A DNA stretch of 64,000 nt from Eledone cirrhosa (lineage: Eukaryota), in contig OZ024762.1 of the NCBI GenBank assembly GCA_964016885.1, positions 12,276,001-12,340,000 on the forward strand. Direction: 5' to 3'. Under the pieces are notes generated by a model. It worked only from the letters and a program-made list of their open reading frames with translations. It was not told where the DNA came from and made no database searches. This document shows, piece after piece, positions 50,576 to 64,000 of this stretch (the first letter of the stretch is position 1; the number at the start of each line of letters is the position of its first letter). The position numbers and the translations under genes were made by a program.

Positions 50576-51501
50576 CTTTTGTGGGCACGACAAGATGATT
50601 TTAATTGGTGGCACTCCTGCGACAATTTTCTTTATACATTAAAAGACATTGTACATGACAAAAGTACATTACTAGAAATCCAATATGTTATAAAATATAT
50701 AGGATGGGTTTGGAGGGTCTCAGTATGTTATAAAATATATAGGATGGGTTGCAGGGTCTCAATATGTAAACAATGACTAATCCTAATTTAAAAAAAAAAA
50801 TCAATGGAGACAACCAATTCTCCTCACCCACCCCTGCTTCTTCAAGCCCTTCCCTCATTATTTGGGATCCCCAAGAGTTCATAAACTTCACAGAAAGATG
50901 CAACATGAAGATGTAATACTATAGGCTGTCTGTAAAACTAAACTTTCCATTGTTGAATCTCTTAAGTATCATCTTTATCTGACATTCTTGTTTCTTGACA
51001 TAAAAGAGTTCTTTTTTTTCACTTCAGATAACTTCATCAATATTTACCATCTTTTAAAGACTCCAGGAAGAGATCATCATCACAATTTAACGTCTATTTT
51101 TCCATGCTTCAATGAGTTAGACGGGTCACCCATGTCATAAGACAAGTCTGGCCAGTTAGCCACGCTGTACCTTACTCAGATCGAACTGTACTTTGGCTGG
51201 GATTTTTACAGCAGGATGCTCTTCCTAACATCAACCTCATTTATAGTGTTTTATATTGAACAAATATAACAATATGGTGGAATTACTGTCAAATATTCTG
51301 AACTGGGGTTAATAACAACATATCACTTCTCGTTGTCTGGAATGTGTACAGGTGTGAAAATATCACTGATATCTGAGGGTACTATCGTCATGCTGGTGTG
51401 AAAATATCACTGTGATATCTGGGGTAAATATCGTCATACAGGTGTGAAATTACTACTGTGATATCTGAGGTAAAGTGTACTCTGGGAGTTGTGGTTTAAC
51501 T

Positions 51502-52566
51502 ATGGACAAACAGAGTCATACACAAGAGAGACCATATCAGTGTGATATCTGTAGTAAATCCTTTTCTGGAAGACAGGACTTAACTGTACACATACGCATT
51601 CATACAGAAGAGAAACCATATCAGTGTGATATCTGTGGTAAATCTTTCACTGCAAATAGTAAATTAACTAGACACAAACGAACCCATACAGGAGAAAAAC
51701 CATATCCCTGTGATATATGTGGTAAATTATTTGGGAGTAGTGACTTAACTACTCACAAACGTATTCATACAGGAGAGAAACCATTTCACTGTGATATCTG
51801 TGGTAAATCATTCTCTCATAGAAAAAGCTTAGTTGGACACACGCTCATTCATACAGGAGAGAAACCATATCAATGTGATGTCTGTGGTAAATCATTTTCT
51901 TGGAGTAGTGCCTTAACTGGACACATACGCATTCATACTGGAGAGAAGCCATACCGCTGTGATATCTGTGGTAAATCATTCTCTCAAAATGGTGACTTAA
52001 CTAAACACACACCCATTCATACAGGAGAGAAACCATTTCACTGTGGTGTCTGTGGTAAATCCTTTGCCTGGAGTAGTGCCTTAACTAAGCACAGACGTGT
52101 TCATACAGGAGAAAAACCATATCAATGTGATATCTGCAGTAAATCATTCTCTCAAAGTGGTGACTTAACAAAACACAAACGTGTTCATACAGGAGAGAAG
52201 CCATTTAAATGTGATGTCTGTGGTAAATCATTTTATGGTGGAAATGACTTAACTAAACACAAACATATTCATACAAAAGAGAAACCATTTCATTGTGATA
52301 TCTGTGGTAAATCTTTTTCCTGGAATTGTGACTTAAATACTCACAAACGCACTCATACAGGAGAGGAACCATTTCACTGTGATGTCTGTGGTAAATCTTT
52401 TTCTTGGAGTTGTGACTTAACTTCTCACAAACGTAGTCATACAGGGGAGAAGCCATTTCACTGTGAAGTCTGTGGTAAATCATTCTCTCACAGCGGTAGC
52501 TTAACTAGACACAAACATAGGAGCCATGGGCCTCCTGAAAAACGACCTGACCAAGATCCCGTGTAA
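51502..52566 (+). CDS. Tandem C2H2 zinc-finger protein (12 fingers, no KRAB/SCAN), single coding exon
   Basis: ORF with 12 C-x2-C-x12-H-x3-H units (finger 3 is x11, finger 12 ends H-x4-H) joined by TGEKP(Y/F) linkers. First ATG at 51502, stop TAA at 52566. Confidence 0.93.
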   Translation: MDKQSHTQERPYQCDICSKSFSGRQDLTVHIRIHTEEKPYQCDICGKSFTANSKLTRHKRTHTGEKPYPCDICGKLFGSSDLTTHKRIHTGEKPFHCDICGKSFSHRKSLVGHTLIHTGEKPYQCDVCGKSFSWSSALTGHIRIHTGEKPYRCDICGKSFSQNGDLTKHTPIHTGEKPFHCGVCGKSFAWSSALTKHRRVHTGEKPYQCDICSKSFSQSGDLTKHKRVHTGEKPFKCDVCGKSFYGGNDLTKHKHIHTKEKPFHCDICGKSFSWNCDLNTHKRTHTGEEPFHCDVCGKSFSWSCDLTSHKRSHTGEKPFHCEVCGKSFSHSGSLTRHKHRSHGPPEKRPDQDPV

Positions 52567-53941
52567 GCCTGTGAGATACAAACTGCAGCACTGAAGGGTA
52601 CAATGCAACCTCTAGTACTTTGCATAGTTTTACTGGTTGGATAACCCTCCTATTACCAACAACTTCGCAGTGTGGACTACATATATAACTTGCAACAGTT
52701 AAGGAAGAACACATTGTTCATATCGTTTTTGCATTTGAAAAGATGGGAATAACCCTGAAATATACTGGGTAAGAAAAACATTCCTTTGCTTTGTCATACT
52801 TTACCCTTTATATATTTCTACTGTACCAGCTTTCTGAAACTCATCAGTCATTTATAACTCATTTGACAAGAGGGTAATGGAACCATTACTTTGTTTTGTC
52901 ATCCTTTGCCCTTTATATATATTTCTATCACATTGTACCGGCTGTCTCACATACATCAGTCATTTATATATATATTTGTAAAACTAAACATTCTCAGATC
53001 TTTTATACCATCCCAAATACAGGAATAAGGGATGATTCCATATATTTTGCATGGACACATTGCAACTGCAGACACCTAATAAATGTCCTTAAACCCTTTA
53101 GTATTTACTATTATATTTTCACAGTAAAGGCTTTACCTCACATAATATTGAATCTACGAGATTTTGATATTAGTTATTTTAAGAACAATACTTTAACATA
53201 AGTATGAGCAGAAAGAGGCGAGAGAATCTGGTCGAATATGGCCAGTTTATTCCTTATAATTATTTCGATGGTAATCACAGCATCTTTCTTAATGTTGTTA
53301 TACTGAATCTCCATCGTAACTACACACTACGAATGTAAAGAGCTTTCTCCTGTTGTAAACCAAATCAACTTTTACTGAACACAATATATATAGAGATAGA
53401 TATTTATACAATATTTTGTAGACATTTTTTATATACACACAATATATATGTATACTTATTGGAGTTTGCTGTTGTTTCTTAGAAGAAATGAAAAAGCAAA
53501 AGTTCAGTTTATTTAATTTATTCTTTTATTTCACATTTTCGTCTGTAGATAAGACAGTTTATTTACATTCCTTCGAAGATAGCAGTAGTATTTTCCTGTG
53601 TAGAGAAGGTTTAGTTCTGGTAAAGAAGAAAATCAGAAGTATATATGTAAGAGGGCCGGCTGACCAAATGGAAAGAAACAATGCAGTTCCTCAATGACTA
53701 TATATCCTGTTATATATATACAAAATACTAGCAGTTCCTCAATGACTATATACCCTGTTATATATGTATAAAATACTAGCAGTTCCTCAATATCCTGTTA
53801 TATTTATATATATAGAAACGGAAAGAAAGCGAGATAACACTCGGAATATGTCGTGTTATCTCGCTTTCTTTCCGTTTCTTTTTTTTTTAAAAAGAAGGAA
53901 AATGTTTAGCTATAAGTATGCCTATTTGACTCTGTAGAATT

Positions 53942-54106
53942 GCGGCTTGTGCGTGGCGCTGCACGTAGCGTTTCTGGCTTCGCTGTCGTACTTCGGTATG
54001 GCATGACCACTCGATCGTGTCTGAAGTTCGAATCGTTGCGGGGTCGGCCGGGACCACAGCAGGCTGGCTTTATGCTGGCCTGCTCTCCCGCCTCGCATGA
54101 GTTTTT
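53942..54106 (+). ncRNA. Candidate structured Pol III small RNA, copy 1 (unassigned family)
   Basis: TATAAGTA at 53911. GC-rich island whose 5' GGCTTGTGCG pairs with 3' CGCATGAGTT. cUUCGg hairpin at 53984-54003, B-box-like GTTCGAATC at 54026-54034, 11-bp hairpin at 54058-54084, TTTTT at 54102-54106. Conserved in a second copy. Confidence 0.6.
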
Positions 54107-54164
54107 GCCAAACAATTTGACGAGAGTTATCTCCCCTTAATTTGAATTATTTGCCCTTTGTTTA

Positions 54165-54282
54165 CATTGAACTACTTCCGGTTTGTGGAACTCTTCTTCC
54201 TTTGTATTGAAGAAATAGCATCGTTTTATTTACTCTGGGACTATTAACGATATTGGTTTGGATTTTACATTCGTGTAAAGAG
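54165..54282 (+). promoter_or_regulatory. ETS-motif Pol II promoter and non-coding exon (copy 1)
   Basis: CTACTTCCGGTTT at 54172-54184, identical to 48666-48678. Donor AG|GTATGT at 54283. Confidence 0.5.
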
Positions 54283-57200
54283 GTATGTAAAGTTTTATTT
54301 GCCGTTTATATGTGAAAACATTGCTAAATATACACTCACAGATATTATTGACATACAAGAGTACGTTTTTCTCTTTTTGGAAACGTAAATACATTTGTAT
54401 AAACACTCTTCGTTATATATATATTCATCTATAGATGTAAATTCATTCTAACCATATTCCATATACCAGAATTTTAGGGACACACGAAGCTACATTTATA
54501 TATACGTTGTTATATCTTCTAAAGATCATAACCAAGCCCTCTCAACACCATATACATTTCTATAACCTTAATACTGGAAGAATAAAGATACCTTGCATTT
54601 ATATATAAATGCTCTCACTTAGAAACATACATAAAGTTCTTCCTTGTAAAGAATGCAATGTTTTGTTTGCCGTGTCCTCTTTCAGAATCCATAGACACAA
54701 GCTACATTTATTTACGTAAACTAAAGGTACATCTTTTAAGAATTGTAACTACAATTTCTCTGTTCACTTCTAAGAAACGAAAGTAAACCCTCTTTCTGAC
54801 ACAGAGCTACATTAATGAATACTTGTAAGAAACTAAACCATACATCTACATTTTATTATCTTTCACATCTAACAAAACACGGTAGCTTCTCTCCAACCTC
54901 CCTAGACTTCTTCATTAGGTCACTGAAGCTACCTCTTGTATTACTAATGTTATCAAGACTCCTTTTATTAGCCTCACATCTACTCCAATAAATACAAAAC
55001 TAAACCTTTATCACCCATTTTATAATCCTAACAACACTAGGCTTTGAAGAAGAAAGGTAAATAAAAGAATAAACCATACTTTTTCTTTGTTGCTTTATTA
55101 TCTCATTCATGTTTATATATATATATATACACACACACACCTATTCTAAGAAAGTAAACATACTTTTATATAGTCCTTCTCATACAGAAGAAGTCTTACT
55201 GTCTAGATAAATACTTCTTAATAGAAACAATTAAGCCATCTCTATATATATAAACCTTTATACAGGAAAATAAATCTCCTTTCATTGTTCTCAGAAGCAG
55301 TAAGAATTCCCTCCATTATATATATAATGTTGAGATACTATATATTATAGAATACACACGTGTAAGGAACTGTGGAATACATACACACATTAACCCCCCT
55401 AGATTCTGAGCCATCTCTATTCACTACATACCTTGTGTAACAAAGTACTGTTACCCCTGTAGCTGTGTATATACATACATTCGTATTTATAAATGTATCT
55501 CTCCCTATATATACTACATTGAAGAAAGATGCTTGCCTATACATAAACACTTATGTGTATATAAGAAGCCGTATTCTATAGAAAACCTGACCTCCAGACG
55601 TACCTGTAGCTCCGAGAAATTAGACAGTTCTTTCCCCATTACATACATCAATACCTTCCTATCTCTAGACGTGTATACTTACTACAATACTCTATTATAT
55701 AGGAGAATAAACAGTAAGAATTCCATCCGTTATATATATAATGTCGAGATACTGTATTTCTCTCTATATATACACACTTCATTGAAGAAAGATACTTCTC
55801 TAGACGTACTTGTTGTTCTGAGAAGTTAAACTACAGAGTATCTAGGATACTGTATATATATGCATAAATCTCTCTATATATACACACAATAATCTATACG
55901 TATATATCTAAAATTACTCTATATACACAATTTATTTTCTTTCATTTATTATTACTTCGCCATCTGCGATCACAACCCTTACTGTGAACCCCTGTCTAAC
56001 CAGAAAACCTCTATTTACTACACCCTCCATTCCATTCCATTACGTTGTTCCCTACTTTATATAGATTTATAAGAAACTAACCAACTGTATTTTTATAGAG
56101 TGCAGACACACTATTCTATTTATCTACTTACCTTTTCTGCTCATGATACATAAACACATACTTCTGTCTGCACACAATATTGATGTTAGAGCTGTGTTTT
56201 TATTAATATCTTCTTTGTTTCTTTCCAGATATGTTGAAGATCTCTGTCAGCTCACCACAGTGTATAATATATACACACACAGATTAAAGAAATAAAAACA
56301 AAATGTAGTGTTTATTGACTTATATTATATGTACTCCCCTAATAAATGTAATTACGATATACACAGCTAGTGGAAAGTCTAACTTCCTAGAGCTACATTT
56401 TATAATATGAATGTGTATATATAACACAGCAAGTTACTGTATATGATGTATGTAGAGGTTTGATTTCCTACGGTAATATAAAACTTAAACAACCATGTAT
56501 TCTATATAATACAGTTATCTCTGCCAAGATGAGGTGTTTAATTACAGCAAAGAATATAAATATCTCTTGCCCTATATACACAGAGTATGTGTATATGATA
56601 CTGGGTAGTGAAGAATGTTTAAGAGAACATTCAGTTTCTTAGAGCTACAAGTACAGTAAATGAAATACTTAGTGTATATATAATACAGTATTCTAGTGTA
56701 AAGGATTAATTTCTTACAGTAATATAACCTTATACAACTATGTATTCTATATAATACAGTAAGAGAAGGTATATAGCAGTTTAGTTACTTAGAGCTATGT
56801 TTATTGCCTTATATATACACATATTATGTGTTTAACAGAATATTCAGTTTCTTACTGCTACAAGTACAGTAAAGAAGATACTTACTGTATATATAATACA
56901 GTATTTTAGTAAATTTCTATATATATCTCATACTTAAGATATAAGAAGGTAATGTTTGTATTCTATTGAGTTCAGTCTCCTAATATATTAACTTCAATAG
57001 AAGTATGTAGCTCTCTCTAGTATCTAGAGAATGGTTTTATTATATACCTGTATGTAAAGGTTTGATTTCTTACAGTTATGTATTCTATATAATAATTATC
57101 TCAAAAGAGGGTATATAGCAGTTTAATTACTTAGAGCTACAAGTACAGTCAAGAAGATGTATTGTATATTAGTGTTTTGGTATCCTATAATGGTATATAC

Positions 57201-57354
57201 ACAACTTAGAGCTAAATTTATAATGTGAATATATATATATATGAGAGAAGATATTAATGTAACTACGTATGTAAAGGTTTAACTTCTTAGAGCTACATTT
57301 TTATAGAAGAATATATCTTCTTGTGGTAAGTATACATGTGTAGAGATAGAAAGA

Positions 57355-60300
57355 TATGTATGTATGTATACATACGTATGTATATATACATACATATGTA
57401 TATATAAACATACATATGTATGCATACATACGTATGTATGCATACATATGTATATATACATACATGCGTATGTATGAATACATACGTACGTATATATATA
57501 TATACATATGTATGTATGTATACATATGTATGTATGTATACATATGTATATATACATACGTATGTATGTATACATACATATGTATGTATGTATATATACA
57601 TACATACCTATGTATGCATACATACGTATGTATATATATATATACATATGTATATACATACATACGTATGTATATATATATATACATATGTATATATATA
57701 TACATACGTATGTATGCATACATACGTATGTATATATATATATACATATGTATATATATATACATACGTATGTATGTATACATACGCATGTATGTATATA
57801 TATACATACATACGTATGTATATACATACATACGTATGTATATATATACATACGTACGTATATATGCATACATACGTATGTATATATATACATATGTATG
57901 TATACATACATATGTATATATGCATACGTATGTATGCATATATACGTACGTATGTATATATGCATACGTATGTATATATATATATACATACATACGTATA
58001 TATATACATACGTATGTATATATACATACGTATGTATATATATACGTATGTATATATACATATATATGTATGTATATATACATACATATGTATGTATATA
58101 TACATACATATGTATGTATATATACATACGTATGTGTATATATACATGCGTATGTATGAATACATACGTACGTATATATATATACATACATACGTATGTA
58201 TGCATATATATGTATGTATATATACATACGTATGTATGTATACATACGCATGTATGTATACATACATACGTATGTATATATACATACGTATGTATGTATA
58301 TATACATACGTATGTATATATTCATACGTATGTATATATACATACGTATGTATATATATACGTATGTATATATACATATATATGTATGTATATATACATA
58401 CATATGTATGTATATATACATACATATGTATGTATATATACATGCGTATGTATGAATACATACGTACGTATATATATATACATACATACGTATGTATGCA
58501 TATATATGTATGTATATATACATACGTATGTATATATACATACGTATGTATATATACATACGTATGTATATATATATATATATATACATACGTATGTATA
58601 TACATACATACGTATGTATATATATACATACGTATGAATATATACATACATACCTATGTATGCATACATACGTATGTATGTATATACATACGTATGTATG
58701 TATATATATACATACATATGTATATATATACATACATATGTATGTATATATATACATACGTATGTATGTATATATACATACGTACATATACATACATACG
58801 TATGTATGTATATATACATACGTATGTATATATTCATACGTATGTATGTATATACATACGTATGTATGTATATACATACGTATGTATGTATATATATACA
58901 TACGTATGTATATATATACATACTTATGTATGTATATATACATACGTATGTATATATATACATACGTATGTATGTATATATACATACATACGTATGTATA
59001 TATACATACGTATGTATGTATACATACGCATGTATGTATACATACATGCGTATGTATACATACATACTTATGTATATATGCATATATACATACGTATGTA
59101 TGTATACATACGCATGTATGTATACATACGTATGTATATATACATACGTACGTATATATGCATACATACGTATGTATATATATATGCGTATGTATGTATA
59201 CATATGTATGTATACATACGTATGTATGCATACATAGGTATGTATGCATACATACCTATGTATGCATACATACGTATGTATATATTCATACGTATGTATA
59301 TATATACATACGTATGTATATATATACATACATATGTATGTATATATACATACATATGTATGTATATATACATACGTATGTGTATATATATATATACATA
59401 CGTATGTATATATACGTACGTATGTATATATACGTACGTATGTATATATACATACGTATGTATACATACATACGTATGTATATATATACATACGTATGTA
59501 TGTATATATACATACTTACGTATGTATATATATATACATACATATGTATATATATACATACGTATGTATGTATACATACGTATGTATATATACATACGTA
59601 CGTATATATACATACGTATGTATATATATATATACACATACGTATGTATTTATACATACATACGTATATATACATACGTATGTATGTATATATACATACG
59701 TATGTATGTATATATACATACGTACGTATGTATATATACATACATACATATGTATATATACATACGTATGTATGTATACATACGTATGTATGTATACATA
59801 CGCATGTATGTATGCATACATACTTATGTATATATGCATATATACGTACGTATGTATATATACATACGTATGTATGCATACATACGTATGTATATATATA
59901 CATACGTATGTATGTATACATACGTATGTATGTATATATACATACGTACGTATATATGCATACATACGTATGTATATATATATGCATACATATACATATG
60001 TATGTATACATACGTATGTATGCATACATACGTATGTATGCATATGTACGTATGTATACATACGTATGTATATATTCATACGTATGTATATATATACATA
60101 CGTATGTATATATATACATACATATGTATGTATATATACATACATATGTATGTATAAATACATACGTATGTGTATATATATATACATACGTATGTATATA
60201 TACGTACGTATGTATATATATACATATGTATATATACATACATACTTATATATGTATACATACGTATGTATATATACATACCCACGTATGTATTTATACA

Positions 60301-61078
60301 TACATATGTATATATACATACGTATGTATATATACATACGTATGTATATATATACATACGTATGTATACATACATATGTATGCATACGTATGTATATATA
60401 CGTACGTATGTATGTATATATACATACATACATATATATACGTATGTATGTATATGTATACATACGTATGTATATGTACATACATACTTATATATGTATA
60501 CATACGTATGTATATATATATACCTACGTATGTATACATACATACATATGTATGTATATACATACGTATGTATATATACATACGTATGTATATATACATA
60601 CGTATGTATGTATACATACATGCGTATGTATGTATACATAGGTATGCATATATATGTATGCATACATACGTATGTATATATACATACATACGTATGTATA
60701 TATATACATACATACGTATGTATATATATACATACATACATGTATGTATATACATACGTATGTATATATACATACGTATGTATATATACATACATACGTA
60801 TATATACATACGTACGTATATATATACATGCGTATGTATACATACATGCGTATGTATGCATACATACATGCGTATGTATATATATATATACATACCTACG
60901 TATGTATACATACATACGTATGTATGTATACACATACGTATGTATATATATACACATATGTATGTATATGTACATACATATGTATGTATATATACATGTG
61001 TATGTATATATACATATGTATGTATATATATATACATGTGTATGTATATATACATATGTATGTATATACATACATACA
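57355..61078. repeat. 3.7-kb self-complementary TA/CATA/TACG satellite
   Basis: Built from palindromic words (CATACGTATG, CATATG, TATATA, TGCA). Almost strictly alternating purine/pyrimidine. Confidence 0.97.
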
Positions 61079-62738
61079 TCTCTAATTCCTTAGCTATATT
61101 TATATAATACAGTAGTCTAGAGATATAAGGGTATTAATATGTATGTAGGTTGTCTTTATATCTGTGTAGTGTAACTTCTAAATCTACAATGAAGATATGC
61201 TTTATATACACAAAAGTGTTTATATGGTGAGTATGCCTGTCTAGAGAACAGGGTAACTGCGTACATATGGTTCTACATACTGTACTCTATTGAACACAAC
61301 TTCAATATATAATGGAGGTACTTCTTCCAATATAGAGAAGAAGGTATATTATTGACATGAAGTAAGCTTTGTGTGTCATATTGATTACAGTTTTTCTATA
61401 TATGTGTGTATGTAAAGAACACTAAATTTCTTTGTATTTATACAGTTAGCCCTCTTGCTTCTTAGGAAGCATGTACACGTTCTACTATGAGATGCTTATA
61501 CACAAGTAGATGAACAATAGTAGTAGTTTCCTAAGAGACGTATGTGTAGTATCTAGCGAGGATGTATTGATGTGTATGTACAGATCAAAACCTCTTATCT
61601 TATATATGTAGGATGTTCACTTCCAGGTTTCTACATACACGTGCATAATATAAAGAGACACACACAATGTGGGTTTAGATATATTCTATAGAATACAGTT
61701 TCTTATATACAGACATGTCTACATTGATGTTATTTACCTGTATATAGAGATGGCTTGTTTCTAATAGGTGTGTATCTAGGAAATAATTTATATAATATGA
61801 ATCTAGTATACAGTGACAGAAGGTTTTTGTCTTCCTACAGTGTAAGAGGTGTCTAGTGTGTGTATATATATACAGGGAGTAAATAATAAGGCAACAAAGG
61901 AAAATACTGGTTTATTCTTTTATTTCACAATTTATTTACCTTTCTTCTTGAGATAGGGTTGTAGTAGTCTCCAGGTCTGGTGCTGTTCTTTAGGAATATA
62001 AAATAGGTTAGTTGTGTATATATAAAGGTTTAGTTTTGTATCTAGTGAAGAACGTTTATATATGGATGATGTAGCTATCAAGCAGGTGAGGATGCTAGAA
62101 GTAGTAATAAGGAGTCTTACGGCAGAGTAATAGAGCTACCATGCTTCGTTAGATATAAAATATAACTGTATGGTTTAGCTTCTATATTCATATGTCTAGA
62201 GAAGGTTTAGTTTCATGTCTATTATTCCAGTATGAACAAGTTTGTATATTGCGCCTCATAAGTATCTGTTATGATAGAAGGGAGACCGTTTATATATGAA
62301 TATAGCTTCATGTGTACGTATGTCCCCAGGATTCTTCCTCTACATGGTTTAGAATAAATTTACGGCTAATACATAAATATGCCTGAAGTGTTTGTGTATT
62401 TACGTGAAAAAGTGTCTTCTTGTATATAGAATATCTGTGTGTGTATTCAGGTATATACAGAAGATAAAATGTGTATAGAGAGGAAGCTTGGTTATATTTC
62501 CTTACAAGTATGTATATAGTATCGAGAGACGATTTAGTTGTAACATGTTAGAAGAGGTGTGTATATATATACAGATCATGGTTAGTTTTGTTTCATAATA
62601 GAGGAGGGTAACATGTATGTTTAGTTAGAAGAGGTAGCTGCGTGTATATATTTAGTTTTGTTTCTTTAAAAGACATGGCAACTTACTTTTGTGTCTCAAC
62701 AATGTGTGTGTATATACGGCAAATAAAACTTTACATAC

Positions 62739-62850
62739 CTCTTTACACGAACGTAAAATCCAAGTAAATAGAATGTTACCACTTCAATACACTGAAAAGA
62801 AATGACAACAAAGTAAGAAGAGTTCCACAAACCGGAAGTAGTTCAATGTA
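62739..62850 (-). promoter_or_regulatory. ETS-motif Pol II promoter and non-coding exon (copy 2)
   Basis: Reverse-strand CTACTTCCGGTTT at 62829-62841. Donor AG|GTATGT at 62738. Confidence 0.5.
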
Positions 62851-62906
62851 AACAAAGGGCAAATAATTCAAATTAGGGGGAGATAACTCTCGTCAAATTG
62901 TTTGGC

Positions 62907-63060
62907 AAAAACTCATGCGAGGGGGAGAGCAGGCCAGCCTGCTGTGGTCCCGGCCGACTCCCGCAACGATTCGAACTTCAGACACGATCGAGTGGTCATG
63001 CCATACCGAAGTACGACAGCGAAGCCAGAAACGCTACGTGCAGCGCCACGCACAAGCCGC
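62907..63060 (-). ncRNA. Candidate structured Pol III small RNA, copy 2
   Basis: Reverse complement of copy 1, with TATA at 63084-63091 and T5 at 62907-62911. The main difference is an 11-nt deletion that shortens but keeps the AGCAGG/CCTGCT hairpin. Confidence 0.6.
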
Positions 63061-64000
63061 AATTCTACAGAGTCAAATAGTCATACTTATAGCTAAACAT
63101 TTTCCTTCTTTTTTAAAAAAGAAAAGAAACGGAAAGAAAGCAAGATAACACGACATATTCCGAGTGTTATCTCGTTTTCTTTCCGTTTCTCTTTCTATAT
63201 AAATATAACGGGATATATAGCCATTAAGGAACTGCTAGTGTTTTGTACATATATAACGGGATATACACGAATAGAAGCCAGGGAATATGTAGTAAGGGGT
63301 TGACTTATATAGGGAGTCAATAGTTTGACCATTTTCGCCAACTTCAAATTCTACATAAATAAGGTTCGCATTTTTGCCCACTTCTCAGACATAAGATAGG
63401 GAGGAGGGTCACCTTATATTCGAGTATTTTGTACATCTATTCTTGTTAGACTAGACCGGCATCATCATTGGTAGAGCACACCAGGTGCTACTGCGTTGAA
63501 CGAGACTAAGGCTGTGATGGTCCTCAGGGCACTGCTGTCAATTGTCTTTGTGAGAGGCCACGTTTCTGCTCCATAGAGGAGAAGACATGCATCTTTTCAG
63601 AACAATTAATATGTAGGTAACATAGCCTTAGAGAGATCTGTATTTGTAATAGTTAATATCGATTTGGGTAATCTTAAGACCATGATTCCAATCATCAATA
63701 TATGTATTGATTAAACCTAAATATAGTATATAAAGAAGTGGATTTTAAAATATGCAATGATAGTGTCGAGAGAAGGCTTAGTTAGTTACTTCTAACAATG
63801 TACCACTATGAATAAGACAGAAGGCGGTGTATGTAGATAGAATGTTTAGTTTTCCTGAGTATGAAGGGGTTTTAGTTATTATTCTTAGTAAAAAGATGGT
63901 TATATTATAAATATACGTCTCTAACATTCCTCCTGTATATGAAGGGTAGTGAAATATATTCTTGTGTCTCAGGAATAACTACGTGTTTATCGATGAATTT

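Follow-up and report, generated by a model that had tools for sequence, protein, structure and literature searches.

What kind of RNA is encoded by the short, highly structured Pol III-type gene that an earlier note had recognised, with a vault-like RNA as one suggestion, in the 64,000-nucleotide stretch analysed here (the window, corresponding to G000:C23:12276001-12340000, in whose numbering the positions at this locus are given), and what carries it? Sequence comparison points to a real family, apparently not described before, whose structured Pol III-type genes reside in dispersed units with inverted arms and are distinct from vault RNA. The gene in the window is one member of this dispersed family of about 270 copies, about 212 of which form family F1, where the window gene falls into subfamily F1-I, and about 62 a second family, F2.

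The window gene and its facing partner

The gene is predicted to fold into a terminal panhandle, a long left arm with a three-way junction, and a 3' hairpin domain (Table 1). Its parts are largely as the earlier note had described them: the TATA element TATAAGTA is read in the sequence at 53911 with G53942 lying 31 nt downstream, the TTTTT run and the B-box match are found at the positions listed in the table, the panhandle has its 10 bp together with the GGCG/CGCC extension, and the inner helices, namely the C-UUCG-G hairpin at 53984-54003, the GGCUUCG/UGAAGUU helix, and the 11-bp hairpin at 54058-54084, are all present. The island is indeed CpG-rich, with an observed/expected CpG ratio of 1.15 in the feature versus 0.52 window-wide, and the MFE of the predicted fold, -76.5 kcal/mol (z -4.09), was reached by 0 of 200 shuffles. 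Two further claims weakened on inspection. Scored against the A- and B-box consensus sequences, the proposed A box is poor, a match to the tRNA A-box consensus with at most one mismatch being present in 1 of 20 F1 rows and 0 of 13 F2 rows, and the extra-stable UUCG loop is not kept, being replaced by UUAU, UUAG, or UUAA in other copies. The U6 genes of this genome have an octamer upstream, whereas the TATA region of the window gene is without one. The upstream inverted repeat is found before most F1 copies and has a longer spacer in F2; the homology of the window copy to its relatives ends near -257.

Table 1. Features at the locus, in window numbering
Feature	Position	Strand	Remark
48-bp tandem repeat, 2.3 copies	53683..53791		homology limit of this copy near -257
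Left inverted module of ~560 bp	53749..54310	+	88% identity with 63265-62711
Perfect inverted repeat, 27-bp arms, 12-nt spacer	53814..53879		holds half-sites akin to the family motif
TATA box at -31	53911..53918	+	U6 genes of the genome at about -30
Predicted Pol III RNA gene, subfamily F1-I	53942..54106	+	panhandle, by folding; T5 end
A-box-like stretch	53954..53965	+	fails tRNA consensus at 1 mismatch
B-box match	54026..54034	+	19/20 F1 rows, only 3/13 F2 rows
Oligo-T, predicted Pol III terminator	54102..54106	+	sequence
Half-site of family motif, just 3' of gene	54124..54137	+	motif match
Interior, AT-rich, without credible ORF	54311..62710		homologous, when reversed, to the interiors of other F1-I pairs
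Central AT-rich satellite, periods 4/18/22	57354..61077		
Right inverted module	62711..63265	-	
Half-site of family motif, downstream of copy 2	62876..62889	-	
Second gene copy, facing the first	62907..63060	-	11-nt deletion and two 1-nt indels; weakened fold
TATA box of copy 2	63084..63091	-	
Upstream inverted repeat of copy 2	63126..63189		approximate limits, read from sequence

The second copy reported at 63060-62907 is real and has the described 11-nt deletion, accompanied by two 1-nt indels, but its fold does not stand out from shuffled sequences, 24 of 200 of which were as stable (z -1.18). The bodies of the two copies differ by 0 substitutions in 153 aligned bases and by 3 gaps, and the near flanks are almost as close, with 1 substitution in the 31-nt leader and 1 in the next 84 nt downstream. 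The statement that the body is far better conserved than the adjacent DNA therefore applies to the farther flanks (11/162 and 19/106 differ) and not to the leader and near downstream DNA. Both copies lie at the centre of one inverted module of 560 bp, 88% identical between its two occurrences, and the left module corresponds to the core common to all family copies. Of the palindromic family motif discussed below, the pair in the window carries half-sites only. Elsewhere in the window are a C2H2 zinc-finger exon (51469-52566, + strand; 365 aa stop to stop, with 12 double-finger stretches), which ends 1.4 kb before the first copy, a tRNA-Phe(GAA) gene (42310-42382, + strand), and two partial tRNA-like repeat heads (24368-24427 and 28105-28162, both + strand).

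Two related families and the constraint on promoter and fold

That the gene is present in two copies, as had been stated, holds for the window and not for the genome, in which an exact 20-mer has 73 matches (37 on the + and 36 on the - strand; 56 on C23, 11 on C25, and 6 divided among four further contigs) and the core motif has 212 (control 0), with the family as a whole dispersed over more than 15 contigs. A DNA search with the gene yielded 187 candidates, 40 of which were scored and were all 97-100% identical, and the TATA-leader motif had 214 matches (control 5); for both motifs the first 100 matches were listed. Family F2, discovered through a leader-anchored locus with a very different body (L078), is represented by 77 search candidates and by 62 motif matches (control 0), none on C1-C5. 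When neighbours within 15 kb are considered, the 73 exact young copies form 32 convergent pairs, 2 divergent pairs, and 0 tandem pairs, so that 64 of the 73 face a partner, at a spacing of 2.9-14.2 kb (median 6.9); the best-scoring U6, SRP, and vault matches, unlike these convergent pairs, are mostly arranged head to tail, each kind in an array at a single locus. Many young pairs have a copy of subfamily F1-II about 1.7 kb outside them, in one case just beyond the window end.

Sequence comparison indicates that F1 and F2 are homologous families. In global alignment with F2, the window copy is 57% identical and an old F1 copy 61%, and the local alignment of the two families stands above shuffles by z 8.9 for one locus (L109) and by 2.6-4.1 for the others. 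When 20 sources are searched with a covariance model of 13 F2 rows, full-length old F1 copies score 20-28.5 bits and F1-II barely matches, at 11.2, and among the same 20 sources neither the window copies nor vault, SRP, or U6 loci give a match. The two families have in common the upstream inverted repeat, the TATA box, the leader end, the T run, the downstream motif half-sites, and a GGGAC/GUCCC stem with a capped hairpin, and one locus (L269, G000:C14:39293150-39293850) is a natural chimera in which an F2 5' end is joined in register to an old-F1 body. More distant families may remain; an 11-mer in common with F2 was followed up through its 1477 matches and discarded, with 16 of 16 read belonging to unrelated repeats. 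In other organisms, one low-depth contig over the body was found in organism B (275 nt, 1 substitution, 3 gaps) and one in organism C (144 nt, 4 substitutions, 2 gaps), each of which may equally come from a relative, from diet, or from contamination, and in organism D the match was to a T/A run only.

Among contexts found by a 5' body motif, the TATA box stands at -31 in 47 of 48 from F1 and 28 of 29 from F2, that is, in 75 of 77, and in F2 the spacing of the TATA box stays fixed while the leaders differ by 17%. T-run ends are present in both families, and folding favours the + strand over the - strand by 11-26 kcal/mol. A panhandle of at least 6 bp occurs in 47/47 F1-I, 4/6 F1-II, and 26/27 F2 contexts, the F1-I and F2 contexts deriving mostly from body searches, which biases them toward intact copies; among old F1 contexts it is kept in only 13 of 32, a set that includes 4 mis-anchored contexts dropped from the divergence analysis. 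Covariation was assessed on structures from single rows by permuting 3' columns within each pair type. In F2 (13 of 22 distinct bodies, chosen to be non-redundant), both sides change in 5 of 44 pairs, the 5-6 double changes exceed the 1.4-2.8 expected (p 0.001-0.005) and extend to long-range pairs (columns 11/145, for example), and the variation in paired columns is half that in unpaired ones. In F1 (20 of 67 distinct bodies, chosen near full length) the double changes are not significant (p 0.07-0.14), and in both families G-U and A-C changes are near even (8:5, 8:5, and 7:5 in F2; 14:15, 22:16, and 20:18 in F1).

Divergence, measured over 150 random pairs (15 for F1-II), gives a mixed picture, in that the body diverges less than both flanks only in F1-I (3.1% versus 5.8/8.7%), about as much as the upstream DNA in F2 (13.0 versus 13.4%) and in old F1 (19.5 versus 18.0%), and more than both flanks in F1-II. 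We read these patterns as birth and death, with some lineages keeping promoter and fold and many copies decaying, and hairpin-templated repair could imitate part of the constraint signal. As to the designation of the locus as a Pol III-type structured RNA gene, it stands as a predicted architecture, made up of the TATA box at -31, T-run ends, a fold common to two families, and the lack of an Rfam match.

Relation to vault RNA and other known RNAs

At the gathering score, Rfam gives 3 tRNA-like matches over the whole window, none of them on the feature, and at E up to 10 it gives 24 sub-threshold matches over 53700-54400, mostly on the upstream hairpin and none notable on the body; in particular, neither RF00006 (vault RNA) nor RF00019 (Y RNA) matches the body at E up to 10, and 7 diverged loci have no RF00006 match at E up to 1. 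Vault-type traits are predicted, a panhandle joining the 5' and 3' ends and a U tail, which vault RNA combines, as here, with a TATA box and an internal box; the family RNA differs in matching no vault model, in having an extra 3' hairpin domain, and in the position of its B box, about 70 nt from the end. The vault-like label was abandoned because the genome holds a separate canonical vault RNA cluster (L207-L212, G000:C3:221183987-221251257) of at least 14 tandem genes of 87-93 nt, to which the similarity of the window RNA is not above chance: 14 of 17 vault matches are over the cut-off, all on C3 (best 43.3 bits versus 34 for RF00006), and the closest case, the window copy against an 87-nt vault gene, was equalled by 8 of 200 shuffles. 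The C3 vault genes have TATA-like upstream DNA and T-run ends, and MVP, which together with TEP1 represents the vault particle that vault RNA binds, is on C24. In the reviews consulted, vault RNAs are listed for deuterostomes and trypanosomes (the comparison literature includes PMC9179338), and canonical vault RNA genes in this genome are notable if the animal is a mollusc.

For Y RNA, 51 candidates from the whole genome were scored against RF00019, and none matched at E up to 10. A bulged C in the Ro-binding helix is a feature of Y RNAs, and the predicted terminal stem has no bulged C helix; two TROVE-domain loci (C4 and C10) exist despite the lack of an Rfam Y RNA match. An identity with 7SK, SRP RNA, or U6 was likewise rejected, the genome's own genes for these RNAs lying elsewhere (U6 genes on C19 and elsewhere, SRP genes mostly on C12) and showing no resemblance to the family beyond chance. 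Alignments of vault, SRP, U6, and 7SK genes with F1 and F2 reach shuffle level only, and by this comparison the canonical vault RNA, 7SK, SRP RNA, and U6 of the genome are unrelated to the RNA described here. The single 7SK match (L270, G000:C2:194684573-194684851; 45.1 bits versus 35) has GAUC motifs in its 5' stem, a TATA box, and a T-run end, and tandem arrays comprise about 30 U6 genes at G000:C19:31.78-31.84 Mb and about 21 SRP RNA genes at C12:42.10-42.13 Mb. Also discarded were homology to the tRNA-Phe gene and to a tRNA-like repeat head (by alignment against shuffles), a suspected resemblance between the 5' end and the Alu domain of SRP RNA, which 91 of 200 shuffles equalled, and a hammerhead core (no fit to the motif on reading the sequence).

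SINEs characteristically start at +1 without upstream DNA, have a tRNA, 7SL, or 5S head, and end in a tail and a target-site duplication. The family is not just a SINE, because its copies carry upstream DNA, with the TATA box in 75/77 contexts and the upstream hairpin common, and no tRNA or SRP similarity of the family was found.

Resemblances to other systems concern architecture or mode of spread. Adenoviral VA RNA is, like this RNA, about 160 nt long with terminal and long stems, a U end, and a box B (PMC7589676), and EBER genes have the mixed upstream and internal promoter predicted here (PMC7058938); both differ from the family, for which there are no viral genes in the units read, no sequence match, and a poor box A, so that architecture alone is alike, and it is by architecture alone that the family was compared with VA RNA, of which a conserved GGGU-ACCC is a feature. 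VA RNA is encoded by a virus genome and blocks dsRNA sensors or Dicer, and here no viral ORF and no viral-contig match were found. The primate snaR is likewise a lineage-restricted Pol III RNA amplified as a gene plus 0.5-kb core with variable flanks (PMC3045588), and spread of a core of gene and flanks by DNA duplication is found in the family too; snaR is, however, Alu-derived and proven to be expressed, whereas here there are about 270 copies, convergent pairs, palindromic sites, and no 7SL or tRNA ancestry. The Cassandra TRIM of plants is a non-autonomous element with a Pol III gene, including promoter and terminator, in both terminal repeats, the role of its RNA being unsettled (PMC7215508). 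As an LTR retroelement, Cassandra has direct repeats, and its RNA derives from 5S, in contrast to the inverted repeats, DNA copying, and RNA matching no known gene seen here. A search of the literature by title and abstract, with subscription journals, Repbase, and Dfam outside its scope, so that an unpublished repeat entry may exist, returned no description of the family or its motif.

The carrier units and their possible mode of spread

Inverted arms of 0.6-2.3 kb at 84-98% identity are present in 10/10 young pairs fetched, enclosing interiors that are AT-rich, satellite-bearing, and in some copies flipped relative to the flanks; recombination between copies is also seen. Some young pairs have in common blocks of 13-17 kb with breaks in (TA)n and with scraps that we take to be of LINE, SINE, and mariner elements, and across subfamilies only about 500 bp are in common, the homology fading gradually to limits that differ by subfamily. 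In the units examined, neither an element end nor a target-site duplication, an empty site, or a coding partner could be identified, and these absent ends and the gradual fading fit segmental duplication equally well. The units read contain no credible ORF, with only LINE, mariner, and Helitron scraps nearby, and an ORF on the reverse strand close to one F2 copy, which had the look of a nuclease motif, proved to be non-coding upstream DNA. F2 units have the inverted repeat, (TA)n, a 40-bp array, and a downstream palindrome, with subTIRs and ends undefined. One young unit on C25 is flanked on one side by an 812-aa reverse-transcriptase-like ORF (L051, 3163-5598, - strand), presumably Penelope-like and seen at that unit only, and on the other by a Helitron-like fragment (L052, 377-889, + strand).

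The family motif is a palindrome with 14-bp arms that has 28 exact genome matches (control 0), always with a spacer of 11 nt (8-14 allowed) of variable sequence, and that is located either between old copies that converge or downstream of F2 genes; at 4 of the six sites read a gene copy lies no more than 5 kb away, and at 2 (L238 and L242) there is none in that range. A tyrosine-recombinase site, as described in PMC3212892, consists of two inverted arms of 11-13 bp around a spacer of 6-8 bp. The 14-11-14 palindrome resembles such a site in its sequence layout and exceeds its dimensions unless the arms run 2 bp further in, some copies being 16-7-16. At one locus on C20 (L140/L141, G000:C20:24849600-24857200) the full unit is a 7.6-kb palindrome centred on a GC-rich branched hairpin; in the whole-unit palindromes at this locus and at L142-L144, the hairpin is bracketed by the family motif and resembles a fold-back junction.

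Candidates for a protein acting in trans were sought in the same genome. Six long uninterrupted DUF3504 (Crypton-type) ORFs of 404-617 aa stop to stop are present (L230, L232, L233, L234, L236, and L237), and 9 DUF3504 loci have neither the RNA gene nor a paired palindrome within 1.5 kb; a Crypton would be expected to have a recombinase ORF or ends in common with an autonomous element. Helitron Rep genes are abundant (3704 candidates, 150 scored), and near-identical Rep domains about 100-200 kb apart, mostly on one strand, occur at G000:C27:13.1-15.5 Mb, at C20:3.5-5.2 Mb, and on C19 and C16, a spacing that may reflect a recent burst or large duplications. No link of DUF3504 ORFs or Helitron Rep genes to the family was found. 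HINE (non-autonomous Helentron), foldback, and Crypton elements are, as here, non-coding, with inverted repeats, central arrays, palindromes, and no target-site duplication (PMC7492417 and PMC3212892), the HINE/Helentron layout comprising 11-12 bp subTIRs, a 5' inverted repeat, a microsatellite, a central tandem array, and a 3' palindrome (PMC7492417, in part); they differ in that no subTIR or defined ends are seen here and that the available passages do not describe a Pol III cargo for them. In viral contigs the three family motifs had 0 matches, and four metagenome matches were set aside as chance occurrences in GC-rich coding DNA.

The explanation that we favour, at not quite even chances, is that the family is the Pol III RNA cargo, the only conserved one, of a non-autonomous mobile DNA element without proteins of its own, and that the RNA is probably self-serving. 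Pol III would transcribe intact copies from the TATA box and B box and stop at the T run, giving a predicted panhandle RNA of 155-185 nt that would serve the persistence of the element itself. A protein supplied in trans, of recombinase or Rep type, would bind the palindromes and spread the units, with recombination between arms adding to the spread; together these would account for flipped interiors, mosaics, and ragged ends. Copies with intact promoter and fold would amplify and old ones decay. What the RNA would do is the part we hold most loosely: even if the rest is right, we think it rather doubtful that it is an abundant VA-RNA-like mimic of dsRNA tying up dsRNA-binding or small-RNA machinery, and Pol III/TFIIIC occupancy may instead merely keep the arms open.

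Among the rival explanations, the one we take most seriously, while judging it somewhat unlikely, is a snaR-like host family of Pol III RNA genes with a host role for the RNA, multiplied by passive segmental duplication on small chromosomes rich in repeats and zinc-finger genes and subject to birth and death. It would explain the core of about 500 bp with variable flanks, to which snaR duplicons, with their gene and core of about 0.5 kb, offer a counterpart (PMC3045588, in part), the common blocks of 15-17 kb with old LINE, SINE, and mariner scraps and breaks in (TA)n, the C2H2 gene 1.4 kb away, and the covariation in F2, whereas strict convergent pairing, central palindromes and satellites, and dispersal over more than 15 contigs are left unexplained by passive duplication, and the genome's other Pol III genes amplify mostly in tandem. 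We consider it improbable that the fold acts in single-stranded DNA, where a rolling-circle or foldback element would use it as its origin or hairpin, or that hairpin-templated repair gives rise to it, with any transcription incidental. Such an explanation would suit the abundance of Helitron Rep genes, the inverted repeats, central tandem arrays, palindromes, and missing target-site duplications of HINE elements (PMC7492417, in part), the weak G-U/A-C test, and the non-significant covariation in F1; it sits poorly with the fixed distance from TATA box to start and the T-run ends in F1 and F2, with the better folding of the + strand by 11-26 kcal/mol, with F2 covariation that spans long-range pairs such as columns 11/145, and with the failure to identify 11-12 bp subTIRs.

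The remaining two readings carry less weight. A viral origin, with the unit as the remnant or satellite of an integrated DNA virus bearing inverted terminal repeats and the RNA as a true VA-type viral gene, would agree with the length of about 160 nt, terminal stem, and U end of VA RNA (PMC7589676, in part) and with the 7.6-kb palindrome unit on C20, whose central GC-rich branched hairpin is flanked by the motif; no unit read contains a viral ORF, three motifs have 0 viral-contig matches, and the 4 metagenome matches are chance, which leaves this quite improbable. Slighter still is the prospect of orthology, after divergence, with vault RNA or Y RNA, for which the panhandle with its B box paired to the 5' side, the presence of MVP and of two TROVE loci in the genome, and a Y RNA slot left open because no Y RNA match exists elsewhere in the genome can be adduced, against the canonical vault cluster and the lack of similarity to it, the absence of an RF00006 or RF00019 match on the body at E up to 10, and a terminal stem without the bulged C helix of Y RNAs.

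Returning to the mobile-element cargo, its fullest form, in which protein-less animal mobile DNA would hold a VA-like Pol III RNA in both inverted arms, be moved by a trans recombinase at 14-11-14 palindromes, and use the RNA to blunt host dsRNA or small-RNA defences, strikes us as an unlikely proposal. If the family is expressed, its roughly 270 copies of an unannotated structured RNA would amount to a major small RNA of this lineage that has gone unseen. If it is a host family, it would form a parallel to snaR, and if it is the cargo of an element, it would be the counterpart in an animal DNA element of the Cassandra 5S gene and of viral VA RNAs, and the question of why selfish DNA keeps a Pol III gene would become testable.
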